Of a DNA stretch of 60,814 nucleotides, positions 507-17,331 are shown in pieces. The stretch is from IMG/VR virus record IMGVR_UViG_3300037418_000950. The stretch is one strand, 5' to 3'. Under the pieces are notes generated by a model. That model saw nothing but the letters and a program-made list of their open reading frames with translations, ran no database searches and was not told where the DNA came from. How positions within the stretch are numbered: position 1 is the first letter of the stretch; each line of letters opens with the position of its first letter. Made by a program: the position numbers and the translations under genes. Origin of the DNA: a virus (Duplodnaviria > Heunggongvirae > Uroviricota > Caudoviricetes).

Positions 507-3005
507 TTATTGAAGGTCTGAGGATGTGTTACTGACCAGCGCTTCGGGAGCTTGTTGCTCAACGGGGGCTGGAGTTTCATCCGCAGGTGTTGTAGCCGTT
601 TCCGCTTCGGGCGCGGTTGGCGCAGGTGGCGGTACGGCGTTTGCGTCAGCGACTGGTGCTGACACTTCTTGAGGAGACGCAGATGAAACATCTGATGTTG
701 TCGGATCAGTGGGTGCAGGTTGAACTGGCACTGGATTGGGAACAACACTTGCTGTATCCGCGGGAGCATCAGAAGATGCTGGAGCTACAACAGGTGCAGC
801 ATCAGCGGGTGCATCGGGCGTTGTGGTTGCGTCAGGTGTTGCGGGCGTTGCGTCAATCACAACTGGAGTGCTGGTTGTGTCAGGCGCGGGAGCCGTTTGA
901 TCAACTGGTGATCCAACATCCGTAGAGGTCACAACTGGTGTACCAGCGGCGACAACGGCGGTTGAAACATCCTTGCTCACATCCACACCAAGTTCACTCA
1001 AAGCCTTATCAGCTTCGGGGGTCGTCGCAACGACGATATCATGTTCATCGGGTGCCGTGACGACAGGCGTCAGAGTGGCATCCGCGGGAACTTGACCTTG
1101 CGTATCCGAGAGTACAACCTTCTTACCACTTTCGTCTTCGACTACATCAGCCTTGACGACGGTTTGAAGGGTGTCAGGAACCGCAATCGTTACAGGGGCT
1201 GCGGTCGCATCGGCGGTCGGTTGAACGACAACATCAGCGGGTGCGGCATCCTTGGTTTCTTCGGTTGCGGGCGGTGGCGGATCGGGAAGCGTCACACCAG
1301 CGGGCGCAAGTTCAATTGCATCCTTGGCTGATTGTAGAACGTCAATGCCCTTATCCTTCATTTCGGCTTGGTGATCGGCGTCAACCGCGACAACAACGTC
1401 TGCATTGCTGTCAGGCGTCTTGGCGACAGTTGTGACCACATTGTCCGAAACGATTTCGTGGGTTGAGTCCGACAGGGTGACCGTTGCTTGAGGTTCGGCC
1501 GATTGTTGATCAACAACGGGCTTCACGTCCGTGACTTCGGCGGTCACGACTTGCGGAAGCTCTTTGGGAATTTCGACAGTGGTTGTGGCCACGACCGAGT
1601 TTTGATCGTTGGTGACGACAGGCACCGTATCAGAGACAGGCGTGCTTGTCACGTCGGGAGCCGCAGCCTGGACCGCTTGCGAAATGGCCGTTGACGGGTC
1701 AACACCAGCGTTTACGAGGGTATCGTGAACTTCGGGCGGGACCGCAGCAACCACGTCGTTTTGGCCAGCCTGTGTAACCACAGGAACCAGAACGCTATCG
1801 GCGGGGATATTGGTGCCGTCCGATGGCGTCAGGGCCACGGCAGGAACCGTGCCTGAATTGTCGGCTTGCACCGCAGTCGTCACGTTGACGACAGGGGTTA
1901 GGGTGTCAGGAACTTGGACTTCGACCTTGGGGGCGTCCACATTGTTGTCTGCCACAGGAACAGGCGTAGTGTCTGTTACGACAGGGGCAGGCTCAACGGG
2001 GGCCACCGAAACGTCGGGATGATCGAGTGCAGCACTGACAGAAGCGGGAATATCAATTCCAGCGGCATTAGCGGCTGCCACTGTATCAGGTGACATTGCC
2101 ACCACCACATCAGGCTTGCCTTCATCGGTTTTTACAGTCGTTAGAGTTGCGTTATCCGATACTTCGTGAGTCGCGTCCTGCAACGTCACGGTTGCCTGGG
2201 GTTGGTCAGATGAATTGCTGACGCTTGGAACCACGTCAGAGACTGTAGCTTCGACAATCGGCGGGACGACAACAGGTGTGTCCACCGTGACCGTAGGTGC
2301 CTTGGCCGTATCGTCATTGACAACAACTTGCGTTGTTTCAGGGGCGGTTTCGACGGGGGCAGGTGCGGGAGTATCAGCTACAGGAGTATCAACAGGCGCG
2401 GGTGCTGGAGGGGTCACCACCGCGGCCTGTTGATCTTCGACCGTTGGGAGTTCCAACGGCACAGCCACTTCACTGTTCGGGTCGGAACCCGTAGGAATCA
2501 TGACAGGCGAACCTGCCGAGTTATATTCCACAGTGTAAGGTACATCGGACTTTGGCAATGGTCCGATAGGAAGCGTTGTTAATTCCCTCGGAGAATTGGT
2601 ATCTGTGAAGACGACACTGAGAATGCCATCATCAAGATTTGCTTCCTTGAAGGCGAGGTTACGAGCAACCAAGAACTTGGCCGAGACCTTACCACCAGCA
2701 AGAATACCTTGATGGAAATAAACGTCGTCGGATGCGCTGGTTGAATCGAAGCCAACATTAGTCGTCGCTTCGATTGTTAGGTGTTTGGGATCAAGGGTTG
2801 CCTTGATATCCTTGCGATCTACCCCTGTAAGGTCAAGCTCAAGAGTATAACCACCGTCTGAGGTTTTCTTGATATTGTAGGGCGGGATCGCGGTTACGTC
2901 TTCGACAGATGTAGCATCATCTACACTGTCAATTAAATCCAGAACTGGATCAAAGCCAATGCCGAGCTTACCGACATATGACTTATATCCTTTACTTTTA
3001 GCCAT
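507..3005 (-). CDS. Hsp20/IbpA-like small heat-shock domain fused to ~700-aa acidic Pro/Val/Ala/Thr/Asp-rich repeat region
   Basis: N-terminal IGFD...PPYNIKK...YTLELDLTGVDRKDI...YFHQGI...ANLDDGILSVVF (alpha-crystallin pattern); four internal ~90-aa repeats. Confidence 0.8.
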   Translation of the reverse strand: MAKSKGYKSYVGKLGIGFDPVLDLIDSVDDATSVEDVTAIPPYNIKKTSDGGYTLELDLTGVDRKDIKATLDPKHLTIEATTNVGFDSTSASDDVYFHQGILAGGKVSAKFLVARNLAFKEANLDDGILSVVFTDTNSPRELTTLPIGPLPKSDVPYTVEYNSAGSPVMIPTGSDPNSEVAVPLELPTVEDQQAAVVTPPAPAPVDTPVADTPAPAPVETAPETTQVVVNDDTAKAPTVTVDTPVVVPPIVEATVSDVVPSVSNSSDQPQATVTLQDATHEVSDNATLTTVKTDEGKPDVVVAMSPDTVAAANAAGIDIPASVSAALDHPDVSVAPVEPAPVVTDTTPVPVADNNVDAPKVEVQVPDTLTPVVNVTTAVQADNSGTVPAVALTPSDGTNIPADSVLVPVVTQAGQNDVVAAVPPEVHDTLVNAGVDPSTAISQAVQAAAPDVTSTPVSDTVPVVTNDQNSVVATTTVEIPKELPQVVTAEVTDVKPVVDQQSAEPQATVTLSDSTHEIVSDNVVTTVAKTPDSNADVVVAVDADHQAEMKDKGIDVLQSAKDAIELAPAGVTLPDPPPPATEETKDAAPADVVVQPTADATAAPVTIAVPDTLQTVVKADVVEDESGKKVVLSDTQGQVPADATLTPVVTAPDEHDIVVATTPEADKALSELGVDVSKDVSTAVVAAGTPVVTSTDVGSPVDQTAPAPDTTSTPVVIDATPATPDATTTPDAPADAAPVVAPASSDAPADTASVVPNPVPVQPAPTDPTTSDVSSASPQEVSAPVADANAVPPPAPTAPEAETATTPADETPAPVEQQAPEALVSNTSSDLQ

Positions 3006-3037
3006 TTTTTCTCCGAGGAAATTTTGAGGGTTGGGAA

Positions 3038-3529
3038 TTACCCTCTATTTATAGAATTGATGTGCTCACCATTTACCCAATCGGCAAACTTCTCATACGA
3101 GAACATGGTCACCACTCGATAGGCATTTGGTCTGTATTCTTGGGTGTTTTCGAGAATGACAGGAAGCGGAAAGCGTTCCGTCTTGCCATACTGGTAAATC
3201 ATGCGACCAACTTGTGTCCAAAGTCGGGCGACTTCGGTTGCCGAGAGCTTGCCATGCTCCACTGAATCAAATCTCTTACCACGCAAAAATGCATAAGCGA
3301 TCTGCGTTTCACGGGCGGCGTTGCGAACGACCGTCTTGCGATGATTCCTGAGTTCAATGAGCTTCCAAGACGCGTAATCATACGCATCTTCCAAGCCTTG
3401 CTTGTGTTTGGTGGCAACCTTGCGTTCGGTTGCTATAGACTCCTCGCGACGGATGATCTTGGCTTCGCCAGCGAGTTCTTTGATTCTTACTTTAAGAAAT
3501 GTACGTGACATGTTTTGAATATTCTCCAT
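3038..3529 (-). CDS. Hypothetical protein
   Basis: 163-aa ORF with GGAG SD upstream. Confidence 0.7.
   Translation of the reverse strand: MENIQNMSRTFLKVRIKELAGEAKIIRREESIATERKVATKHKQGLEDAYDYASWKLIELRNHRKTVVRNAARETQIAYAFLRGKRFDSVEHGKLSATEVARLWTQVGRMIYQYGKTERFPLPVILENTQEYRPNAYRVVTMFSYEKFADWVNGEHINSINRG
3046..3053 (-). promoter_or_regulatory. T4-type late promoter TATAAATA upstream of hsp20 fusion
   Basis: Exact gp55 consensus on minus strand ~40 nt before ATG 3005. Confidence 0.7.
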
Positions 3530-3617
3530 GATTGAAATTAGGGTTTATATGAATTGACCTAATTTCGGGAGGGCCCCTAATATTCTATGAAAATTTATTC
3601 TACCACTTGATTTCCAT

Positions 3618-3869
3618 TTATTCCTTATCCTTTGTGTGTGGGGGACCAAGCGAAAGGTCCCATCCGTAATATGCGAAACCTGAAAGAGGGATTGACACAA
3701 GCAACATTACAGGCCCTGCGGCCAATCCTAAAACACATGCTATTCCTAAATTCTGGCGACGTTCCAGCGGTGAATCCAAAATAGGAAATTTATTCTTGAA
3801 ATAGGCATTCATAAAGCCTGCCCCGAGCAAGCCGCAACTAAACCAGAATAAGAAAAAACCTATCGTCAT
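3618..3869 (-). CDS. Small 2-TM membrane protein (likely start 3869; ORF track start 3893)
   Basis: Two hydrophobic segments; ATG directly after stop of upstream ORF. Confidence 0.65.
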   Translation of the reverse strand: MTIGFFLFWFSCGLLGAGFMNAYFKNKFPILDSPLERRQNLGIACVLGLAAGPVMLLVSIPLSGFAYYGWDLSLGPPHTKDKE

Positions 3870-3870
3870 T

Positions 3871-4002
3871 TTATTCGACTTTCTCATTGTCATCCAACCA
3901 TTTTATCAAGATACCCCATCCTGCTAATACCAAGAATAACAAGAAGGGCGAATAGGAAAACAATTGCCAATAGAAGTCGTAATAGACTTTCAATAGTTCC
4001 AT
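3871..4002 (-). CDS. 43-aa single-TM protein (below ORF-track cutoff)
   Basis: Hand translation MELLKVYYDFYWQLFSYSPFLLFLVLAGWGILIKWLDDNEKVE; fills the gap between tRNA and next gene. Confidence 0.55.
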   Translation of the reverse strand: MELLKVYYDFYWQLFSYSPFLLFLVLAGWGILIKWLDDNEKVE

Positions 4003-4017
4003 GATATATCCGAAAAT

Positions 4018-4092
4018 TGGTGTCCCTGGCCAGATTCTAACTGGCAACCGATCCGTTTAGAGTGGATTGCTCTAACATTGAGCTACGGGGAC
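4018..4092 (-). tRNA. tRNA with CUA anticodon (amber suppressor), encoded CCA
   Basis: GTCCCCG-TA-GCTC-AATGTTA-GAGC-A-ATCCA-CT[CTA]AA-CGGAT-CGGTT-GCCAG-TTAGAAT-CTGGC-CAGGGAC-A-CCA; 75-nt cloverleaf, U33, A15:U48, U19-A56. Confidence 0.85.
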
Positions 4093-4259
4093 TTAAGAGG
4101 TTCAATCGATGATCGTTGCGTGCTGTCAATTTTGACATTCGATGCGCCGAACAACCATTTCAAAAAATCGTCTCGGGATATTTGAATTTTGTTTTTATAT
4201 AACCCATCAGATACTTCAATAGTCATATAGACAGGATCAAAAGTAACCTCGATATGCAT
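4083..4259 (-). CDS. 58-aa hypothetical protein whose TAG stop lies inside the suppressor tRNA
   Basis: GAGGGG SD then ATG at 4259 (MHIEVTFDPVY...); stop equals tRNA positions 8-10. Confidence 0.55.
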   Translation of the reverse strand: MHIEVTFDPVYMTIEVSDGLYKNKIQISRDDFLKWLFGASNVKIDSTQRSSIEPLKSP

Positions 4260-4275
4260 TTTCCCCTCGAAACAT

Positions 4276-4384
4276 TGGAGGCCCGTTAGCACCTAATGGG
4301 TTGTTTCGTTGGATTGAAACAGTGATCCATAAGATACCCCACACGTCTATAGCCGCTACAAGGACTTCTTATACGCGACGGGCC
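4276..4384 (-). ncRNA. Putative 109-nt structured RNA with tRNA-like acceptor stem and 3' CCA
   Basis: 5' GGCCCGT pairs perfectly with 3' ACGGGCC followed by T-CCA; internal hairpin TGTTTC-AATCCAAC-GAAACA; within tRNA cluster. Confidence 0.55.
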
Positions 4385-4397
4385 AAGCGCGTAATTC

Positions 4398-4472
4398 TGG
4401 CACAGGAGGGGCAGAGTCGAACTCCCATCAACGGGTTTGGAGGCCGTTGCTTTACCGTTAAGCTACACCTGT
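4398..4472 (-). tRNA. tRNA-Trp (CCA anticodon)
   Basis: ACAGGTG-TA-GCTT-AACGGTA-AAGC-A-ACGGC-CT[CCA]AA-CCCGT-TGAT-GGGAG-TTCGACT-CTGCCC-CTCCTGT-G-CCA; G73; a few mismatches and a T-stem bulge. Confidence 0.85.
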
Positions 4473-4479
4473 ATAAAAC

Positions 4480-4565
4480 TGGTAGCGGAAGCGCGATTTG
4501 AACACGCGTGGATCACCGTATGAGGGTGCGCTGGGGCCTGATTACCTCTCCAGACTATTCCGCGA
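4480..4565 (-). tRNA. Atypical tRNA with CAU anticodon (Met/fMet/Ile2 unresolved), enlarged D region
   Basis: CGCGGAA acceptor with C1 mismatch, CT[CAT]AC loop, GCGTG-TTCAAAT-CGCGC T-arm, ACCA end; 86 nt. Confidence 0.7.
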
Positions 4566-4570
4566 TAAAA

Positions 4571-4629
4571 GGTGATGACAAGGATACTTCGGTGTGGAAG
4601 GAGGTGATGTGAATATCCCCGTCATCACC
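4571..4629 (-). ncRNA. Late-promoter-proximal 18-bp hairpin displaying anti-Shine-Dalgarno sequence in its loop
   Basis: GGTGATGAC/GTCATCACC (9 bp) plus GGGGATATT/AGTATCCTT (9 bp incl. G-U); loop CACATCACCTCCTTCCACACCGA. Confidence 0.55.
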
Positions 4630-4631
4630 AG

Positions 4632-4639
4632 TATTTATA
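4632..4639 (-). promoter_or_regulatory. Late promoter TATAAATA driving the RNA cluster
   Basis: Exact consensus 2 nt upstream of the hairpin. Confidence 0.75.
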
Positions 4640-4656
4640 ATACCAAATTTTTGGCA

Positions 4657-6054
4657 CTATGTCAAGCTACTTCTGACTTTCTTCTGTAGGCTTGAGAACG
4701 AATGTCTGGCATATACGATGCCTGAGTCATAGACGGCATCGAGCCCCGACGTGATACGACCAGCCTTCGATGCCTTTGACTTATCCGTTGACGGATTTTT
4801 CGATACAGGTTCCCATTCATCCACATTATCAAACGAGATAGCATTGCACTTCATGGCGAAGCTCAGAGTATCACGATTGACTTTTTGAAGTAGAGCCCCG
4901 CCCATACCGAACACCACATTCTCAGCCGACCAGCCTTTTGCTGTTACAGCATAGAGGATATCATCTATGGAGAAGTAATTAATCCCATCACCTTGTATAA
5001 CTCGTACAGAAGGGTGCAGGACTTTGTAACCAAGGGAGTTTGTGGTGTAACCGAAATGGTTGCCAAGTGATGCAATAATACGAGGTACGAGGTCAACAGG
5101 GTCGCCAGAATCAGGACGGACAACAATGCGACCGCCTTTGTCCAAAATTTTGTCATGAAGAAAATCCCCTATAATGTTGTCCACGGCATTCATCGTGTCA
5201 TAGCTATCGATGACAACCGCATAGATTTTTCCTTCACCGCCGAACTGATCAATCATATTCGAGTAGGCATCGGACTCGCGAGTCTGACCCCATGAGGTAA
5301 TGGTGGCGTGCTCGGCCGCGGGAATTGAGTATCCCGCAATGTAATCCGTTATGAATGGACCTTCTGTGCGGTTCTTTGCATCAAAATGGAATTCGGGATA
5401 CCACCGATCCGCATCATATAAAGCTTCTATAGTATCGCTACCATTAAAAGAAAGCAAATGAGCCATGCCCCCGAGGCCAGCGGACTCTGCGCTTGATACG
5501 CCTCTATCACCAAAATCGTGTAGAGCAAAATCCAGAACCCCTTTATTAGCTTCGTCAACAGATTCATCCCAATATCTTTTCATCATCTTCTTGATTGAAT
5601 AGGACAGCGTTGCCACCGTCGTCGGGTACCAGATGGCTCTAAGCATCGCCGTTTCGAGGTAGCTTGTTAGCCACGGCACCTGAGGATCAGTGTTGCGGAC
5701 CTGGACCAGAGGCGTACCGATATCGACAACCGAGCCTTCTGGGATGGATTCAATGAGAAGCGGTAAGCGGCCTTCGTGTTCGGCAAAGATATGCCGCCAG
5801 CCTGCCTCATTGAACGGAACGCCATGCAAGCCTGCCACCTTTTTAGCAAGCTCAATATCACGCGGCAGGAATGTGCCATCCATCAAGTATTTCTTGATGA
5901 ACGCCTGCAATCCAAAGAACACTACCTTGTCGGTACGAATTTCCTTGGGATTGGTTTTACGAGCTTCAATGTAGGAAGAAACGTATTTGGTACCTTCTGG
6001 ATATTGAAGGTAATGACTCCATTTGTACGAGTCACTGTGTTTGATAATATTCAT
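4657..6054 (-). CDS. nadV: Nicotinamide phosphoribosyltransferase (NAMPT/NadV)
   Basis: SDSYKWSH, HDFGDRG, SIPAAEH, VVRPDSGDP, IQGDG, FGMGGALLQKVNRD motifs. Confidence 0.93.
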   Translation of the reverse strand: MNIIKHSDSYKWSHYLQYPEGTKYVSSYIEARKTNPKEIRTDKVVFFGLQAFIKKYLMDGTFLPRDIELAKKVAGLHGVPFNEAGWRHIFAEHEGRLPLLIESIPEGSVVDIGTPLVQVRNTDPQVPWLTSYLETAMLRAIWYPTTVATLSYSIKKMMKRYWDESVDEANKGVLDFALHDFGDRGVSSAESAGLGGMAHLLSFNGSDTIEALYDADRWYPEFHFDAKNRTEGPFITDYIAGYSIPAAEHATITSWGQTRESDAYSNMIDQFGGEGKIYAVVIDSYDTMNAVDNIIGDFLHDKILDKGGRIVVRPDSGDPVDLVPRIIASLGNHFGYTTNSLGYKVLHPSVRVIQGDGINYFSIDDILYAVTAKGWSAENVVFGMGGALLQKVNRDTLSFAMKCNAISFDNVDEWEPVSKNPSTDKSKASKAGRITSGLDAVYDSGIVYARHSFSSLQKKVRSSLT

Positions 6055-6107
6055 TTTCGAAAACTCCTTTCGAGAAAATAACCTTTGGTCTATCCATCGG
6101 TTGTTGA

Positions 6108-6114
6108 TATTTAG
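6108..6114 (-). promoter_or_regulatory. Late promoter variant CTAAATA upstream of NAMPT
   Basis: Same heptamer precedes gp13, gp18, gp19, gp22 and gp23. Confidence 0.5.
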
Positions 6115-6380
6115 TCAGGATAACCAGCCGCGCCCGTTGGTTGAAATTTCGCATCACGATATGTAGTCTTATTCGGATCAATATATCGTTTGAAATATAT
6201 CTGTAGATTATGGGCGCGGTCGTCTCTCTGTAATTCGAAGTAACGCTTGAGTGCATCGCTTTCATTTATAAACGCATAAACCCTACGATCATAAGGGTCT
6301 CGAGCGTCGCCTTCATATTCACATTCAACACAAAAGGCTTCGTTAGTCTCAACCGTAGAAGTTATTGTGAATTTATTCAT
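6111..6380 (-). CDS. Hypothetical protein
   Basis: 89-aa ORF, ATGA-coupled to macrodomain gene. Confidence 0.7.
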   Translation of the reverse strand: MNKFTITSTVETNEAFCVECEYEGDARDPYDRRVYAFINESDALKRYFELQRDDRAHNLQIYFKRYIDPNKTTYRDAKFQPTGAAGYPD

Positions 6381-6838
6381 AGTTCGTAGACTTTCACTTT
6401 GACACCATTTCGTATCAGCGTTGCATTGATAATAGCTTCGATAATGGTCCAGTCGCCACCACCGAGACCCGCGCCGATTTTAGGCATAGCCACTTCAGGA
6501 ATGTTATTATTCGAGATAGCTCGAAAGCACCGTTCGACGGCATCATAAGAGACGAAGCGATCACCATTCTTGCCATAGTAGTCCTGAGTGAAACAATTCA
6601 GAATGTGAATATCGCCATCGGTCCATTCGACTATGCGACCAAGTAAAAGCGCGGAATCTTGAGGTGGCCCTAAATTGTGGTGCTTCTCACAATAATTAGA
6701 GTATGCCTTAAAACATTCGGGATAGAGTTCGCGAACCGTCTTGGCGACACCCGATCCCATGACGCCTTGACAGTTGCAACCATGGGCAATGTATTTGCAG
6801 TCAGTGTCGAACAAATCACCCTTGATGTATTCAATCAT
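6377..6838 (-). CDS. Macrodomain (Appr-1-p processing / ADP-ribose hydrolase-like) protein
   Basis: IKGDLF, AHGCNCQGVMGSGVA, MPKIGAGLGGGDW motifs. Confidence 0.9.
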   Translation of the reverse strand: MIEYIKGDLFDTDCKYIAHGCNCQGVMGSGVAKTVRELYPECFKAYSNYCEKHHNLGPPQDSALLLGRIVEWTDGDIHILNCFTQDYYGKNGDRFVSYDAVERCFRAISNNNIPEVAMPKIGAGLGGGDWTIIEAIINATLIRNGVKVKVYEL

Positions 6839-7173
6839 AGTTTGCCATAGCTCGCGGTTATTTGTGGTTCATCGTAAGTCAGGTTGGGTTTGAATTTTGC
6901 GCGTAGGGCCGAGAGAAACATCTTCGATAGACGCATCTTTCGTTCTTCTTCGTCGGGATATACCGAGAAATCATATTCCCACCATTGATAGGGACACGGA
7001 CCTTCACCACACAAAGGACAGGTGCCTACTTTGTGTGTCCATCCATGTTCGCAATAATGACAAACCTGATAGTCTTCAAGAAGCACCCCGACCGTACAAG
7101 GAACATGTTCCTTATTGATCCAGACGCGTTTCTTGGTGATGGAAGTTGTTTCGGATTTCTTTTTTCGTGCCAT
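6835..7173 (-). CDS. Hypothetical Cys-rich (Zn-binding-like) protein; likely start 7173
   Basis: CHYC...CPLC motifs; TAATG coupling with upstream ORF. Confidence 0.65.
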   Translation of the reverse strand: MARKKKSETTSITKKRVWINKEHVPCTVGVLLEDYQVCHYCEHGWTHKVGTCPLCGEGPCPYQWWEYDFSVYPDEEERKMRLSKMFLSALRAKFKPNLTYDEPQITASYGKL

Positions 7174-7520
7174 TACCGCAATGCCTTCAAAATGTTGATG
7201 CACTCGTTATAGATGCGACCAGAATCGATGCTGTATTCTTGTTGGTTGCGATAGTACATGAGTGTCACAACATCCAACATACGATTGGCATATCCCATGG
7301 CCTGGACGTGTGCGGGACCTTCCCAATTATGTTCACCCTTTTTGACTTCATAATCCCATGGGTCGGACAACGTAATTAATTGATGGTCTTTAAGATAAAG
7401 CGCAAGTTGCTTGTCCATAGACAGCTTCTTGACTTCATCCCGTCGCCGTTTCGCCTCAACAAGAGACGCTTCCAAAGTATCGATATGCTTGGTTAGGCTT
7501 TCATAACTTTCGAGTGCCAT
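7173..7520 (-). CDS. Hypothetical protein
   Basis: 115-aa ORF with GGAG SD. Confidence 0.7.
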   Translation of the reverse strand: MALESYESLTKHIDTLEASLVEAKRRRDEVKKLSMDKQLALYLKDHQLITLSDPWDYEVKKGEHNWEGPAHVQAMGYANRMLDVVTLMYYRNQQEYSIDSGRIYNECINILKALR

Positions 7521-7523
7521 TGT

Positions 7524-7856
7524 CTACTCCATAAAACGAAATGCGATTGGTTTGCCAATGTTGCGGGCGTGCTGAACTTCCATTTCGACTCCCGTGGATT
7601 CATGCCATCCATCGAGCGCCAGAACCCACAATTCTTGACACGCATCAATCATGGCCTTGTCGAAATGTTCCCAAAACGCAAACTCTTTCGGTAAGTCAAA
7701 CTTCGCCGCCAGCGGATGGCAATGCACGATTGGGGAATAGATCACGAACCCTTCATTGATTTTTCGGGCGGTGAATTCCAGAACCTTTTCGTAGCGGTGT
7801 TCGACCACCTTGGGATCGGCATGAGTGTAGGGAGAAGATACAAAAATGAAGCTCAT
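7524..7856 (-). CDS. DUF1937 / nucleoside 2-deoxyribosyltransferase-like protein (likely start 7856)
   Basis: FVSSPYT...YSPIVHCHPLA...MIDACQELWVLALDGWHESTGVEMEV pattern; GGAG SD before MSFIFV. Confidence 0.7.
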   Translation of the reverse strand: MSFIFVSSPYTHADPKVVEHRYEKVLEFTARKINEGFVIYSPIVHCHPLAAKFDLPKEFAFWEHFDKAMIDACQELWVLALDGWHESTGVEMEVQHARNIGKPIAFRFME

Positions 7857-7884
7857 AGGTTTCTCTTGATTACTGCGACGGGTG

Positions 7885-8061
7885 TTATTGGTTTGTAATA
7901 TACAACCACACAAATGCGAACGCGATGGCGATATAAAGGAATAGGTTCCAACCAATATCAAGCCATGCTGCATACAGCATTAGGCCAGTGGCAATTAGAC
8001 AAGTGCCGATGATGGCGAATACGATGCTCCAGGCAAAGACATTGAGAATGTTGAATATCAT
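7885..8061 (-). CDS. 58-aa 2-TM membrane protein (below ORF-track cutoff)
   Basis: Hand translation MIFNILNVFAWSIVFAIIGTCLIATGLMLYAAWLDIGWNLFLYIAIAFAFVWLYITNQ; ATGA overlap with upstream ORF. Confidence 0.6.
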   Translation of the reverse strand: MIFNILNVFAWSIVFAIIGTCLIATGLMLYAAWLDIGWNLFLYIAIAFAFVWLYITNQ

Positions 8062-8309
8062 ACTTGAGGCCCGAGTGTAATTTTTTCAAGAATGTCACGA
8101 AGGGCTGCCAATTCCCCTTGACGGCAACCATTTTCAAAACCGTCTGAGTAACAATCATCGTAATTACCATGACTGTATGGTATACCATCTTCATCTATTG
8201 AAATACCGTAGAAGCTATTCACATGCGGATTTTTTTCCTTGTGTCGTGCAAGTTGTTCCTCAATATCTGCAATATGAAATTTCAAATAAGCGACAATATC
8301 AATAGTCAT
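8058..8309 (-). CDS. Hypothetical protein
   Basis: 83-aa ORF with AGGAG SD. Confidence 0.7.
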   Translation of the reverse strand: MTIDIVAYLKFHIADIEEQLARHKEKNPHVNSFYGISIDEDGIPYSHGNYDDCYSDGFENGCRQGELAALRDILEKITLGPQV

Positions 8310-8331
8310 TCTGTATCTCCTGTAGTTGTTT

Positions 8332-9366
8332 CTAAAGTCCTACCATTGCTTGGATCATGGAAAAATGATCCTCAAAAAACTTGTCACGGTTCAATACGAC
8401 TTCGGCGTAGGGAACCCAGAAAGCCTTATCCGCGTCGTCGCTTCCTTTGACTCGGGGTAAGTCAAAACCATCATTGAGCTTGATATCGAAGCATTCGGTG
8501 ATAGTGCGTCCCCTAGTCGAGCGGTTGGGATTGTCAAAGACTCGGCGGCCTGTAATGCTTCCCTTGATGACAGGTTTGGGCACATCGATTCGGGTTTCTT
8601 CGTAGAGTTCACGTATCACCGCTTCTTCAAGGGATTCGGTTTGATTGACAAAGCCGCCAGGGAGCGCCCATAAACCTTCCCCAGGTTGATCGCGACGCGT
8701 CACTAATAGAAGGTGCCCCGACTGTCTTACAACGGCGTCTACAGTCACAAACGTCGGTGGGTAAGGAGCTTTCTCCCAACCCTTCTTATAATCGCGAATG
8801 TGTTCATATTCTCTTACGAGACGCTTGTATTCATCAGTTTCGTCCCACGCCAAAAGCCATTCATAAACTGCATCCGTGGCACAATACGATTTCCAAACTT
8901 TTAGATTATCTTCAAACAATGCCTTGCGGAAGTCGGTCGCGTTCTGCCCGTTGATAGGCGTGATCGAGACGAATTCATATTGGGGGAATTTCTTGAGATA
9001 GTAAGTGGTATGATCTTTGTCATACCCGATGATGCCGACCGTCTTACCATCGGCGGACCACGGTTCATTGAGAATGAGGGTATTGACCGATGCCTGAATC
9101 GAAGCAATCCAACGGTCATCATTATACATGTAATCGACTTGAGGGACAAAACGAATTCGTTGACGTTCCTCGGGTTTCAGAGACAATGTGATAAGTTTGA
9201 TACGTTCTTTGGTAGAGAAGGGATCGCGAATGTCGGCGGCTTTTTGATCCGAGCCAATGACCATGATCAAGGTTTCACATATTTCGAGAGCTTTGCGAAT
9301 GACGTGAACGTGACCGCAGTGAATAGGTTGGAATCGTCCAATATAGACGAGATAATCGTGTTGCAT
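8332..9366 (-). CDS. Bifunctional NMN adenylyltransferase / ADP-ribose Nudix hydrolase (NadM-Nudix, NatV-like)
   Basis: IGRFQPIHCGH (HxGH) N-domain; Nudix box GGFVNQTESLEEAVIRELYEET; GSDDA motif. Confidence 0.93.
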   Translation of the reverse strand: MQHDYLVYIGRFQPIHCGHVHVIRKALEICETLIMVIGSDQKAADIRDPFSTKERIKLITLSLKPEERQRIRFVPQVDYMYNDDRWIASIQASVNTLILNEPWSADGKTVGIIGYDKDHTTYYLKKFPQYEFVSITPINGQNATDFRKALFEDNLKVWKSYCATDAVYEWLLAWDETDEYKRLVREYEHIRDYKKGWEKAPYPPTFVTVDAVVRQSGHLLLVTRRDQPGEGLWALPGGFVNQTESLEEAVIRELYEETRIDVPKPVIKGSITGRRVFDNPNRSTRGRTITECFDIKLNDGFDLPRVKGSDDADKAFWVPYAEVVLNRDKFFEDHFSMIQAMVGL

Positions 9367-9405
9367 CCAATAAACTCCTTATTGGGATTAGAAGGATTGA
9401 TCTAT

Positions 9406-9693
9406 TCAATCCTTGGGTTTGTAAAACATGTTGTAAATGGTTTCGACGGTCATAATGGCGAGAAAGCCAACGCCCGCCGCGATATACGCACTAACATATA
9501 AAATCCAGAATACAGGCCATATCAAAATGAGCAAAACGTAAGGCATATTTCTTTCGACTATGTCTTGTACGTCTGATTTCTTGGTGCCGTACTTGTTGAA
9601 GCTACGCATTTCTCGGGCATAGTCGTCATATATTATGAAGCAATAAGTGCCGAAACCTATGAGTATATAGGCAATGATAATAAGCGAAATCAT
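9406..9693 (-). CDS. Small 2-TM membrane protein (paralog array)
   Basis: Two hydrophobic helices, Y-x-x-x-G-F and WP motifs. Confidence 0.7.
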   Translation of the reverse strand: MISLIIIAYILIGFGTYCFIIYDDYAREMRSFNKYGTKKSDVQDIVERNMPYVLLILIWPVFWILYVSAYIAAGVGFLAIMTVETIYNMFYKPKD

Positions 9694-9953
9694 TTGCTTA
9701 ACTTTCTACCTAAGAAGTCACGCGTGTATTTGATATAAGCATAGGCCAGTAGAATAAGCATCAGAGGCCATAACCAGAATGTAATGTCGGAATAATACTT
9801 GATTTCCTCAAGCGTCATTCGTTTTTCGTCGGGATCGTAACGAACAACAAAGCGCCATTCGTTACAAAGACCTGCATACACCAGAACGCTTAGAGCGAAC
9901 CCAACAATCAGATAGGTTCCGAGTATCCCAACTAAGCCACCGAGTATGATCAT
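9690..9953 (-). CDS. Small 2-TM membrane protein (paralog array)
   Basis: YLIVGF...WLWP; ATGA coupling. Confidence 0.7.
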   Translation of the reverse strand: MIILGGLVGILGTYLIVGFALSVLVYAGLCNEWRFVVRYDPDEKRMTLEEIKYYSDITFWLWPLMLILLAYAYIKYTRDFLGRKLSK

Positions 9954-10180
9954 TTCTTGCGGCTCATTTTCTTAGAAGCCGCTTCCTGTAAGTCTGTAAT
10001 CAAACCCATCCCAACGTAGAAGACGAGGAAGATAAACAAGGCTGGCCAAACAACAATACAGAGCTTGCTGATTGTATCTACGTCCGCATTAATTTCAGGA
10101 TGGTCGGCGGCCCATGCTCGGAGCCATGCCCCGACATAGAAGCCCACTGTGACATATCCAATCAGAGCAAGGATGATCAT
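9950..10180 (-). CDS. Small 2-TM membrane protein (paralog array)
   Basis: YVTVGF...VVWP; ATGA coupling. Confidence 0.7.
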   Translation of the reverse strand: MIILALIGYVTVGFYVGAWLRAWAADHPEINADVDTISKLCIVVWPALFIFLVFYVGMGLITDLQEAASKKMSRKK

Positions 10181-10317
10181 TTGTCCACCACTAAGATCAC
10201 GGGAGGGGTGACGTTGTTGGCCTTCAAGGCTTCGATAGCCTTGACGGCTTTGGCTCGGTCAGAAAATTCTATAAACAAGGGCACACCACCAGGGGCGGCC
10301 AAAATCAAATAAACCAC
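10177..10317 (-). CDS. 46-aa hypothetical protein (below ORF-track cutoff)
   Basis: AAGGA SD, GTG start, VVYLILAAPGGVPLFIEFSDRAKAVKAIEALKANNVTPPVILVVDK; ATGA overlap downstream. Confidence 0.45.
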   Translation of the reverse strand: MVYLILAAPGGVPLFIEFSDRAKAVKAIEALKANNVTPPVILVVDK

Positions 10318-10320
10318 GTA

Positions 10321-10767
10321 TCATTCCTTTGTAGCTAGATGTTCGTTCAGTGCTTCGATGGTTGGATATTCAGGTATGAACCAACCGTAATGCGGCGTTA
10401 GAGGGTTGACCTTTTCGATTGGCTGATTTTCATCAAGCCATTTGTAGATCGATGAATATCCCTCGGTGATTTCCCGTAGCACCAACAGGAAAGTCGCCGC
10501 GTTGGCGAAGTAGACGGTATAGATTTCCCTATACCATAAGTCGCCAAAAAATATGTCGCTTGTAGCTTCCTGCCACAAGTCGAACTTTGATGGTTTGAAA
10601 ATTAGAGAAAGATAACTAATGACCACATAGAAGTCGTTGGTCATCCCCTTGCGCGGAGTAACGAGCTTGGGACCAACAAGCTCAATTCCATCTGTATGAT
10701 ACACCCCAGGTTTGCCTGATAGCAATACCTCAAATGCAACAATCGGCTTAAAATTTCTTGTACTCAT
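10321..10767 (-). CDS. Hypothetical protein
   Basis: 148-aa ORF starting just after tRNA-Leu. Confidence 0.65.
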   Translation of the reverse strand: MSTRNFKPIVAFEVLLSGKPGVYHTDGIELVGPKLVTPRKGMTNDFYVVISYLSLIFKPSKFDLWQEATSDIFFGDLWYREIYTVYFANAATFLLVLREITEGYSSIYKWLDENQPIEKVNPLTPHYGWFIPEYPTIEALNEHLATKE

Positions 10768-10773
10768 TATAAC

Positions 10774-10852
10774 TGGTAGGGGAGGTGGGGGTCGAACCCA
10801 CAGACGACCCTGATTTTAAATCAGGCGGCGATACCAGTTAGCCTACTCCCCC
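10774..10852 (-). tRNA. tRNA-Leu (UAA anticodon) with short variable region
   Basis: GGGGGAG-TA-GGCT-AACTGGTAT-CGCC-G-CCTGA-TT[TAA]AA-TCAGG-GTCGTCT-GTGGG-TTCGACC-CCCAC-CTCCCCT-A-CCA. Confidence 0.88.
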
Positions 10853-11052
10853 ACTTTTTCGAACCCCCGTATGTATCCTTTGTCATCTGCGAAATACTTC
10901 AACAGATGTTGCCCACAGCGGCAATCTATGTATTTGTCTCCCCCAGGCGTCAGCTTGACTGTACGTCGCGCGCCATAGGGAATGCAAAGAACGTCTTCGA
11001 CAACTTTGACTTGATCGTTCTCGTGAAGATCAGTCAGTAAGAACTTTCCCAA
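10843..11052 (-). CDS. 69-aa hypothetical protein whose TAG stop lies inside tRNA-Leu
   Basis: ORF track; stop equals tRNA positions 8-10. Confidence 0.55.
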   Translation of the reverse strand: MGKFLLTDLHENDQVKVVEDVLCIPYGARRTVKLTPGGDKYIDCRCGQHLLKYFADDKGYIRGFEKVGE

Positions 11053-11170
11053 CCTTGAATTTCTTCCGAGAATATACCTTTTTCGACTTGACTACCTTTG
11101 GTTTGAAAGGTGAGTCTTTCGCGTAAAGTTCAAGGGCTCTATACTTCGGGCGTTTTGAAACTTTTTCCAT
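11030..11170 (-). CDS. 46-aa basic ArfA-like (alternative ribosome-rescue factor-like) protein
   Basis: Hand translation MEKVSKRPKYRALELYAKDSPFKPKVVKSKKVYSRKKFKVGKVLTD; PF(K/R)x(K/R)V-x-K-x-K-K-x-Y-x-R-K resembles the ArfA core. Confidence 0.5.
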   Translation of the reverse strand: MEKVSKRPKYRALELYAKDSPFKPKVVKSKKVYSRKKFKVGKVLTD

Positions 11171-11176
11171 CGCCGT

Positions 11177-11205
11177 AGTATAGACCCTTTCTACTTAAAA
11201 ATCAA
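11177..11205 (-). promoter_or_regulatory. Sigma70-type promoter giving a probable leaderless mRNA
   Basis: TTGATT-17 nt-TATACT-6 nt-ATG. Confidence 0.65.
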
Positions 11206-11402
11206 GCCTTGGGATCGGGTTGAGTAACGGGAGCTACTTGGGCCTGTGACTGAGACTGACCCGCATTATCATGGAACCCGTTGACAAGGTAGTCTTCTAA
11301 CTTCGATGCTGTTTGTAGTAGTCCATGAAGATGGATGTCGCCATCACCCCAAATATCGATGGCTGCCCCGAGGGCGATGTGTCGTACTTCTGTAATATCC
11401 AA
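11202..11402 (-). CDS. Hypothetical protein
   Basis: 66-aa ORF, TTG start 1 nt after upstream stop. Confidence 0.55.
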   Translation of the reverse strand: MDITEVRHIALGAAIDIWGDGDIHLHGLLQTASKLEDYLVNGFHDNAGQSQSQAQVAPVTQPDPKA

Positions 11403-11403
11403 A

Positions 11404-11544
11404 TTATTTTTCCTTATGCTTCTTCATACATTCTTCGATAACTTTTTTGGCCCGTTCAGAGGGCATGTCTCCAATATCGATGTAGAATATTTTCGATTCC
11501 TTGCCGTCCTGAATGCGTTTGATTATTTGAATATCGTTACTCAC
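11404..11544 (-). CDS. 46-aa mini-protein similar to a conserved portal (gp20) segment
   Basis: GTG start overlapping regA end; KIFYIDIGDMPSERAKKVIEECMKKHKEK vs portal RVFYIDVGDMPHAKAQQYVQDIIAKHKSK. Confidence 0.55.
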   Translation of the reverse strand: MSNDIQIIKRIQDGKESKIFYIDIGDMPSERAKKVIEECMKKHKEK

Positions 11545-11956
11545 TAATCTTCTTCTTTCCGCCCATAGAATACTTACTGACCAATTTCCAATTTGGTCGG
11601 TCCTTATAGGCAATCACTTTGATGTGGTTCATCGCTGCCATTGGTTGCAGCATTTCAGGCGGCGAGACAATCTTGCAACCTGGAATCCATTGTTCCAATA
11701 GGGTTGCGATGCGGTTGCGGCGTGCCTTATCTTCTTCGGAAAAATCCGTATCCTTGCCGTCGAGGGCGAACATTTCTTTGAAGTGAACGATGTAGTAGTG
11801 CCCCTGTTTGTGCAGGATATGACAGCTTTGATACAGCGTGTTATCCCTACGGGACGCGATACCTACTCGTTCAAGTGTTTCAAGAATTTTTAGAAAGTCG
11901 TTACGTTCAGCTAATTTCACTTCAATGAACGTAGAAATCAATTCATTATTTGACAT
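11537..11956 (-). CDS. regA: Translational repressor RegA
   Basis: DFLKILETLERVGIAS...LYQSCHILHKQGHYYIVHFKEMFALDGK. Confidence 0.95.
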   Translation of the reverse strand: MSNNELISTFIEVKLAERNDFLKILETLERVGIASRRDNTLYQSCHILHKQGHYYIVHFKEMFALDGKDTDFSEEDKARRNRIATLLEQWIPGCKIVSPPEMLQPMAAMNHIKVIAYKDRPNWKLVSKYSMGGKKKISE

Positions 11957-12341
11957 TTACAATACCACCTTTGGATGAATGCTCTTTTATTGTTTTTATT
12001 TGTGATTCATTCAGAAGTGATAAAGCCTGTTTGGCTTTCGTTGTGTTGTAACCAAAGTATTGCTTAATCAGTTCCAAATTGTCATCGTCTACCTTGGATT
12101 TCTTCAGCCATTTCGCATAACGTTTGCGTGGTTTGACTGCATGAAGTAGGTAGGTGTATTGCCAGCGCTTGGGAACATGGGAATTCATGTTCATTTCATT
12201 GGCCAACATTACTGTATCGGGGTAAAACGATAGCCCCCTATTTATCAAAAAAGGAACGTAAGCATTTTCAAATTCATGGTCATCAAGGTCTCCGAGGGTC
12301 TTAGTCTCGGATACGACTTTCAACATATCCCATGGTGTCAT
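11946..12341 (-). CDS. 62: Clamp loader small subunit gp62
   Basis: YVPFLINRGLSFYPDTVMLANEMN...VKPRKRYAKW...YFGYN..KA..AL. Confidence 0.92.
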   Translation of the reverse strand: MTPWDMLKVVSETKTLGDLDDHEFENAYVPFLINRGLSFYPDTVMLANEMNMNSHVPKRWQYTYLLHAVKPRKRYAKWLKKSKVDDDNLELIKQYFGYNTTKAKQALSLLNESQIKTIKEHSSKGGIVNVK

Positions 12342-16305: not shown

Positions 16306-16865
16306 TAGTCGCTGTCCTTAAGCTCCAGGGCTTCGACATACTTCGCCTGGACGTAACAGTCATCAAGCGTAACTTCAGCCGAGTTCGTGGTGTTGTAGAC
16401 CGACAAGGCATCGTTGATAGCCTTGGAATACTTCAACAGAACCTTGCCGTTATCGACGTTGGAATCGACCCAAACGGTCTTCTTCAAAACCTCGCGGTTG
16501 TCGGTCTTTGTCTTGCTGATATCGACGACCGTGATTTCCCAACGATATGTAAATTTCTTTTCTTTGGCGTTGCAGCCCATATTATCTCCTAATGTAATTG
16601 TGCCATTGCTGATTGGAATGGTGTTTCCAACCCAAATCGCGGCAGCGTTTATTCGTTTTTGATATTCATAGTATTTTGTATCAACCCATGAAGGTAAATG
16701 ATCACCTATGTAATAGGGTCCAGTGGGATCGTAAAAACTTAGAGGGTCACCACATATCGCTTGACCGCCCCATGTTGCTCCACCACCACCGCCTGATGCG
16801 CCTAATTTATCGTTTGCTATTTCGTTTCTCCTTTTTGAACCAGCGTTTCGTTTTTTCCTTTTCAT
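16305..16865 (-). CDS. Hypothetical protein
   Basis: 186-aa ORF in co-directional operon. Confidence 0.6.
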   Translation of the reverse strand: MKRKKRNAGSKRRNEIANDKLGASGGGGGATWGGQAICGDPLSFYDPTGPYYIGDHLPSWVDTKYYEYQKRINAAAIWVGNTIPISNGTITLGDNMGCNAKEKKFTYRWEITVVDISKTKTDNREVLKKTVWVDSNVDNGKVLLKYSKAINDALSVYNTTNSAEVTLDDCYVQAKYVEALELKDSD

Positions 16866-17331
16866 ACCAACTCACGCCGTCATAGAACTTACCGCCGTCT
16901 AAATGTTCAACTTCGTGTTGAATGATGCGGGCGGTCATGCCTGTGTATTTGTTGGTTTCGGTCATACCGTTGGGGTAAGTGAACCGCACGCGAATGGACT
17001 TGGGTCTGGTGACTTTGATAATGAGACCAGGATAAGAAAGACAGCCTTCCTCAAGCTCCACAGTTTCATCTGAGAAGTCCACGATGCGCGGATTGAACAT
17101 GACAAGTATGGGATTGGTAGCGATGGCGCAGACGCGATAGGCGTAACCCAATTGGTTGGCGGCAAGCCCAACGCCAGTCTCCTTCATCATCACTTGCGCC
17201 AAGTGATCGGCAAATTGCACGGGATTGAAGGGAGGGTGAAAGAAATCAAATTCTTCGGTTAGTTTGGTCAATACAGGATTAGAGTAATGAACTAAAGTCG
17301 CCGTTAACCCATCTTGTTCTAAAGTTTCCAC
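16807..17331 (-). CDS. def: Peptide deformylase
   Basis: GVGLAANQLG, EGCLS, QHEVEH (three PDF motifs). Confidence 0.93.
   Translation of the reverse strand: METLEQDGLTATLVHYSNPVLTKLTEEFDFFHPPFNPVQFADHLAQVMMKETGVGLAANQLGYAYRVCAIATNPILVMFNPRIVDFSDETVELEEGCLSYPGLIIKVTRPKSIRVRFTYPNGMTETNKYTGMTARIIQHEVEHLDGGKFYDGVSWYEKEKTKRWFKKEKRNSKR

Follow-up and report, generated by a model that had tools for sequence, protein, structure and literature searches.

Small RNAs (sRNAs) that carry an anti-Shine-Dalgarno (anti-SD) sequence in a loop silence mRNAs by occluding their ribosome-binding sites (PMC4615179, PMC10746234). In the cuckoo/alpha-r14 family, namely CcsR1-4 and NfeR1, an anti-SD-like C-rich motif is left unpaired in the loops, and an ultraconserved loop motif, CCUCCUCCC, is combined with variable stems; for NfeR1, the mechanism is the occlusion of mRNA ribosome-binding sites (PMC4615179, PMC10746234). 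The members of this family are chromosomal and stress-induced, and are built of two to four adjacent hairpins of 24-50 nt, each bearing the motif, with loops of 9-27 nt (PMC4615179). RNAIII, RsaE and the mycobacterial 6C RNA (PMC6486639) also present C-rich loops to G-rich Shine-Dalgarno (SD) regions. These are multi-hairpin RNAs with short UCCC or CCCC seeds, with neither identity to the 16S rRNA tail nor homology to the phage element described below.

[quoted passage not shown] The KH domain of Era recognises GAUCACCUCC (PMC10582724), which is single-stranded beside helix 45, and MazF-mt11 cuts the tail at C^ACCU, thereby removing the anti-SD (PMC12274833). A copy of the 16S anti-SD in a non-ribosomal RNA is found in P6 of OLE RNA, where it recruits bS21 (PMC12054373). 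Furthermore, phages are known to copy a cellular RNA in order to occupy its partner, as in pseudo-ToxI (PMC3594212) and the RNA anti-CRISPRs (bioRxiv 10.64898/2026.06.03.729762).

Here we describe a hairpin RNA from an uncultured, distant T4-like phage, on a stretch of DNA of 60,814 nucleotides that we refer to as the window. To our knowledge, little is known of small RNAs from phages, and no literal copy of the 16S anti-SD tail is established among them. The element differs from every described anti-SD-loop sRNA in being phage-encoded, in copying the 16S tail literally, AUCA included, and in forming the 5′ leader of a tRNA operon. Like the cuckoo/alpha-r14 RNAs, it combines a variable stem with a strictly conserved anti-SD motif that is predicted to be unpaired in the loop. 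It is, however, a single hairpin followed by a tRNA-like cloverleaf; across its three variants it measures 59-66 nt, outside the size range of that family, with a loop of 18-27 nt, which falls within it; and its loop motif, CAUCACCUCCUU(C/U)C, shares CCUCCU alone with the family motif. The original prediction had named the cuckoo/CcsR families as examples of anti-SD loop sRNAs. The likeness extends to the unpaired anti-SD loop and possibly to the mode of action, but hairpin number, motif and size all speak against membership; by analogy, the phage hairpin may act like the family without belonging to it. The anti-SD copy of OLE P6 is duplexed with an SD-like strand within a 600-nt RNA, whereas the phage copy is displayed in an open loop of an RNA of ~65 nt. 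Unlike pseudo-ToxI and the RNA anti-CRISPRs, the molecule mimicked here is the 16S tail.

The hairpin and its genomic context

The hairpin and a short U-tract make up a module that is preceded by a dual sigma-70/late promoter and followed by the tRNA-like gene with which a tRNA operon begins (Table 1). It had been predicted that the late-promoter box TATAAATA is directly followed by an 18-bp stem with a 23-nt loop holding the 11-mer AUCACCUCCUU, and folding of the minus strand with RNAfold reproduced both the coordinates and the anatomy exactly. The stem includes two G·U pairs and one U·G pair. The hairpin has a folding energy of -26.5 kcal/mol (z = -5.1 to -5.6), and none of 200 shuffled sequences folded equally well. 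The 11-mer, at 4608-4598 on the minus strand, is present as a single copy when both strands of the window are counted, and we confirm the earlier estimate of 0.03 copies expected by chance; 3 of 100 dinucleotide shuffles contained it. Aligned with the 16S 3′ tail (GAUCACCUCCUU), the loop matches at 11 of 12 positions, the phage having a C at a 16S G, and this C is itself invariant in the relatives. When positions 3000-12000 were searched against Rfam with cmscan at E ≤ 1, three tRNAs only were returned, and the hairpin matched no family.

Table 1. Features of the hairpin locus, in the order of minus-strand transcription (window coordinates).
Feature	Position	Strand	Remarks
-35 hexamer TTGACA of the sigma-70-type promoter	4660..4665	-	promoter scan; conserved in L021, L022 and L064
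NAMPT stop codon TAG	4659-4657	-	abuts TTGACA of the promoter
Extended -10 element TGnTATTAT	4637..4645	-	promoter scan; TATTAT at 4642-4637
T4-type late-promoter box TATAAATA	4632..4639	-	overlaps the -10 element
Hairpin RNA	4571..4629	-	RNAfold; 5′ arm 4629-4612, loop 4611-4589 (23 nt), 3′ arm 4588-4571
Invariant loop motif CAUCACCUCCUU	4598..4609	-	last 11 nt equal the 16S rRNA 3′ tail
U-rich tract UUUUAU	4565..4570	-	directly 3′ of the stem; minus-strand reading
tRNA-like element	4480..4564	-	cloverleaf-like fold; CAU anticodon loop, C1xU72 mismatch, encoded CCA
tRNA-Trp	4472-4398	-	within the tRNA operon
Suppressor tRNA(CUA)	4092-4018	-	further RNAs lie between tRNA-Trp and this tRNA

Two other pairings of the loop were considered and rejected. 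Pairing of AUCACC in the loop with GGUGAU in the 5′ arm is possible in the window and not in the relative L021. Pairing with GGUGAU in the tRNA-like element (4515-4510) is not conserved, and a chimaeric contig described below argues against it. A repeated promoter/stem-loop cassette of the PeSL type was likewise discarded, since the window contains no second copy of either the promoter or the stem.

The minus strand near the hairpin carries T4-type replication genes, namely: the clamp loader gp44/62, the sliding clamp gp45 and a gp46-like nuclease. An NAD-salvage island consisting of NAMPT and NMNAT-Nudix genes lies in the same neighbourhood and on the same strand. The clamp loader is at most ~53% identical to those of deposited phages, its nearest relatives being found in Stenotrophomonas phage DLP6 and in T4-like phages of Methylophilales and Pelagibacter, while near-identical DNA is present in soil and rhizosphere metagenomes. 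The window also encodes a RegA translational repressor (11537-11956, minus strand; PF01818, 4e-42) and a peptide deformylase (16807-17331, minus strand; PF01327, 9e-33), and the phage thus has several translation-related functions.

Conservation of the stem and the loop

Two contigs from soil metagenomes, L021 and L022 (the latter with copies), are syntenic with the window and have the same promoter, hairpin, U-rich tract and tRNA-like element. Our comparison is made up of these three variants, whose NAMPT proteins are 78-83% identical; the NAMPT of the window has two close relatives, at 83% and 78% identity. The consensus stem common to all three comprises 13 bp, with two compensatory pairs, three GC/GU changes and no broken pair, the double-sided changes being G-C to U-A and U-A to G-C. 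Above the common stem, each variant forms a different short helix, and the loop flanks vary so much in length and sequence that they cannot be aligned. Despite these divergent flanks, CAUCACCUCCUU is invariant in all three lineages. The 11-mer within it is predicted to be fully unpaired with probabilities of 0.56, 0.76 and 0.97 in the three variants, also when the downstream RNA is added to the fold, and the upper helix closing the loop leaves it exposed in each case.

The claim that the hairpin displays the 16S-tail sequence is thus borne out by the predicted folds of all three variants. Loop conservation and covariation in relatives had been proposed as the check to make, and we find the stem kept through compensatory changes around an invariant loop motif. 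Loss of the loop from a retained stem had been named as the pattern that would speak against the idea; the opposite is seen, the motif being invariant where its flanks have diverged.

The adjacent NAMPT gene served as a yardstick for neutral divergence. At its 142 four-fold sites, pairwise identity is 35-46% and only 21% of the sites are invariant in all three variants, so that the chance of 12 consecutive invariant neutral sites is ~8e-9. Because divergence at synonymous sites of the adjacent gene is close to saturation, the motif is under selection rather than preserved by shared ancestry. Selection maintains the stem and, more strictly, the 12-nt single-stranded copy of the 16S tail in its loop. 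Past the motif, L021 continues as UUUCUAA, which resembles the extended 16S 3′ ends found in many bacteria.

A covariance model of the hairpin scores 77-89 bits on the tRNA-sense strand, compared with 13-22 bits on the opposite strand. Because each G·U pair of the stem would read as an A·C mismatch in a plus-strand RNA, the sense RNA is the functional molecule, and what it shows is an anti-SD and not an SD. Read on the plus strand, the motif is AAGGAGGTGATG, a perfect SD followed by ATG, and could be taken for the strong ribosome-binding site and start codon of a small antisense gene; short ORFs are indeed present there in L021 and L022, and the window has one that begins with GTG. We rejected this reading as highly improbable. 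The ATG lies just 2 nt past GGAGG and in the window is directly followed by TGA, the ORFs vary in length and frame across the stem with no conserved opposite-strand ORF among them, and the promoter and all neighbouring genes are on the minus strand, as are the intact stem pairs and the high covariance-model scores. Taken together, we hold with great confidence that the locus encodes a genuine RNA which is under selection and displays the motif.

Promoter, U-rich tract and tRNA operon

The sigma-70-type promoter upstream of the hairpin matches the consensus at 11 of 12 positions, with TTGACA, a 17-nt spacer, a TG extension and TATTAT. In a scan of the window, no other site in the 60.8 kb combines a perfect TTGACA, a 17-nt spacer and a -10 element with five of six matches, and the best-scoring sigma-70-type promoter of the whole window is the one that overlaps TATAAATA. 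The hallmarks of such promoters are TTGACA, a spacer of 16-18 nt and TATAAT. The promoter of the window is conserved in the relatives, and the block TTTGGTATTATAAATAC is identical among the window, L021 and L022. As in T4-type late promoters, TATAAATA lies upstream of the transcription unit on the coding strand. The box occurs three times in the window and is probably genuine too, because each of the three copies is on the coding strand immediately upstream of a gene or RNA start. In L064, a more distant relative, the two signals are merged into TTGACA-18-TATAAATA, with TATAAATA serving as the -10 element.

The promoter had originally been described as a late promoter. This holds as far as the late box goes but is incomplete, in that a near-consensus sigma-70 promoter overlaps the box. 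Because of this overlap, the hairpin RNA is probably made early as well as late, and the apparent retention of both signals likewise suggests expression at both stages. Transcription would start at ~4630-4626, and we infer that the transcript would open with the hairpin whichever start site is used. In metatranscriptomes, contigs from four rhizosphere runs match pieces of 3000-4511 at 99-100% identity, with a peak of depth over tRNA-Trp and a 109-nt RNA (4284-4497). No metatranscriptome contig covers 4512-6200, where the hairpin and NAMPT lie, and contigs of this kind cannot reveal short RNAs or transcript ends, so that this gap weighs neither for nor against expression of the hairpin. A promoter near 4630 would fit the contig pattern, if only weakly.

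The tract that follows the stem is U-rich in all three variants (UUUUAUC, UUGUUAUC and CUUUAUU), five of the first eight nucleotides after the stem being U in each. Possible roles for it are the tail of a weak terminator, a 3′ tail of the Hfq type and a spacer to an RNase P site. In the hairpin-less relatives L063 and L064, the tract is absent too. The tRNA-like element was called neither by ARAGORN nor by Rfam, and its position is conserved in L021, L022, L063 and L064. RNase P would probably release the hairpin RNA at the 5′ end of this element; in all variants the hairpin is 6-8 nt upstream of the acceptor stem, a position that would suit an RNase P leader.

The tRNA-like element, with its CUCAUAC anticodon loop, exists in two very different versions (window 4480-4564, minus strand; L021:5496-5575; L022:5497-5580; L063:4391-4467). 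In the window type, the T arm is canonical and the D region oversized; in the type of L021, L022 and L063, the T loop is odd. The element of the window and that of L021 both leave C1xU72 unpaired. A chimaera of the two types is found at L023:5431-5560 (the same as L038), where the U-tract marks the junction between an L022-type hairpin and a window-type tRNA-like (CAU) element. This arrangement, as read from the contig sequences, implies recombination at the module boundary, and the hairpin module thus appears to recombine independently of the neighbouring tRNA-like element. Further downstream, the amber-suppressor tRNA(CUA) is conserved in L021, L022 and L063-L066. When the region was compared by BLAST with 50,697 phage records, this tRNA gave the sole match, with 78-80% identity to Tequatrovirus tRNAs that carry the annotation tRNA-Met or Ile.

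The location of the hairpin, which begins the transcript and is separated by 6-8 nt from the tRNA-like 5′ end, would also fit a purely cis-acting leader, i.e. a 5′-terminal stabiliser, a leaky terminator or attenuator that would end NAMPT-operon transcripts and tune the output of the tRNA operon, or a processing signal. In this case, some contact in cis would account for the conservation of the loop, and the leader would merely be broken down after its release. A U-rich tract after a stable stem in all variants speaks for such a role, as does the fact that hairpin and U-tract either co-occur or vanish together, and relatives express the same cassette without the hairpin. Intrinsic (Rho-independent) terminators have a stable GC-containing stem, a loop of 3-8 nt and a U-tract directly after it; loops of 18-27 nt are atypical of them, and a terminator scan made no call here. 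Moreover, neither a stabiliser nor a terminator explains a 12-nt invariant block in a loop with freely drifting flanks, and in the chimaera the hairpin shows no dependence on the downstream RNA sequence. We therefore regard a purely cis-acting leader as rather unlikely.

Proposed pairing with Shine-Dalgarno regions and a possible decoy role

Given the conserved copy of the 16S tail in its loop, the hairpin is likely to interfere with sites of translation initiation or with factors binding that tail. Masking of strong-SD mRNAs and a decoy for anti-SD-directed nucleases had both been put forward as possible functions. The reading that we tentatively prefer, at a probability of about 0.4, is that of a ~65-nt 16S-tail mimic that pairs with SD regions. 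The RNA would be freed either by partial termination at the U-tract or by RNase P cleavage at the 5′ end of the tRNA-like element (~4565/4564). Acting in trans, it would mimic the anti-SD tail of the ribosome, pair with SD regions and compete with 30S subunits, with the greatest effect on messages whose SD complementarity reaches into GGUGAU. The SDs of the phage are short, with at most 6 contiguous nucleotides and seven coding-strand copies of GGAGG in the 60.8 kb, so that a 12-nt mimic would discriminate against long-SD messages and largely spare the genes of the phage itself, whose SDs measure ≤6 nt. If this holds true, a lytic phage would possess a compact, RNA-only means of favouring its weak-SD messages.

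In support of SD pairing, the anti-SD is exposed and invariant, the promoter is very strong, the 3′ tail is U-rich, and in the chimaera the module is found without dependence on its neighbour. On the other hand, the target searches, which covered phage DNA, gave no target beyond chance in the three phages. The window holds four sites complementary to the 12-mer with ≤2 mismatches, compared with 4.4 expected, and RNAduplex scans of the window, L021 and L022 returned G-rich coding repeats only and no conserved site. A generic anti-SD would touch the phage's own messages too, and the comparison is limited to three variants, more distant relatives doing without the element. Finally, base-pairing seeds usually require only 6-8 nt. 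The invariance of AUCA upstream of CCUCC exceeds this need, and recognition by a protein fits it equally well.

Thus, the hairpin could instead be a decoy that soaks up a host protein reading AUCACCUCCUU in the single-stranded 16S 3′ tail. The candidates are the Era GTPase, through its KH domain, the ribosomal protein bS21, and an endoribonuclease of a defence or toxin-antitoxin system that cuts the anti-SD, of the MazF-mt11 or RelE1 type. All 12 nucleotides are invariant, including the AUCA that is dispensable for SD pairing, and the motif is predicted to be displayed single-stranded, as such proteins require. The 16S-like match is lengthened in L021 to AUCACCUCCUUUCUAA. The loop holds AUCACCUCC, the recognition sequence of Era (PMC10582724), as well as CACCU, the MazF-mt11 site in 16S rRNA (PMC12274833). 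RelE1 is likewise reported to target the anti-SD region (PMC12620021). RNA mimics that phages direct against RNase toxins are known from pseudo-ToxI (PMC3594212), and the 16S-tail mimic within OLE RNA binds bS21 (PMC12054373).

Several points weigh against a decoy. In the Era site, the conserved G of GAUCA (G1530) corresponds to the invariant C of the phage motif, and AUCACCUCC, although predicted to be unpaired, lacks the helix-45-like context in which Era finds its sequence. A cleavable substrate would be a poor decoy against a catalytic toxin that faces 10^4-10^5 ribosomes. With respect to bS21, the mimic in OLE RNA is a paired SD-ASD duplex as opposed to the open loop seen here, and no bS21 gene was found among the ORFs scanned. 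We consider a decoy to be unlikely on balance. Were it true, an RNase decoy would protect ribosomes during infection, whereas a decoy for Era or bS21 would re-program translation, and the hairpin would be without precedent, either as an RNA that defends ribosomes against anti-SD-cutting toxins or as an RNA sponge for a ribosome-assembly factor. The probability that is left after SD pairing, the decoy, the cis-acting leader and the antisense gene goes to explanations not considered.

Distribution of the hairpin module

Scans for the promoter with the motif and for the stem with the motif in IMG/VR, JGI metagenomes and 185,579 species genomes recovered the same three lineages only, all other matches being hairpin-less. 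When the exact 16-mer around the loop was scanned in IMG/VR, all 17 of the 17 matches were unrelated and mostly reverse complements of ribosome-binding sites. A scan with the 3′ half of the tRNA-like element gave one chance match, and two further NAMPT relatives in IMG/VR (L001 and L002) are not syntenic.

Relatives with NAMPT identities of 63% and 55-56% have all or part of the tRNA cassette and no hairpin, and the covariance model confirms its absence in these more distant relatives. In L063, NAMPT is followed directly by the tRNA-like element; in L064, the promoter lies 6 nt before the tRNA-like element; and in L065 and L066 both the promoter and the tRNA-like element are lacking. Since the tRNA cassette is kept without the hairpin in distant relatives, the hairpin and its U-tract are a lineage-specific insert.

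Two further observations concern the same region in the relatives. In L021 only, a 100-aa ORF is encoded on the opposite strand (L021:5656-5958, minus strand) between tRNA-Trp and a CCA-ended RNA; it may be a mobile, homing-endonuclease-like insertion. In L065, a gene for a 161-aa protein downstream of tRNA(CUA) has its SD, AAGGAGGA, within a perfect 16-bp hairpin (L065:5197-5245, the same as L066:2641-2689), where it is sequestered by an upstream cis anti-SD strand, UCCUCCUUGAUG; the folded 111-nt region has an energy of -33 kcal/mol (z -6.2). In the predicted fold this looks like a classic translational-control hairpin, and anti-SD sequences thus appear to be used in cis in this phage group.
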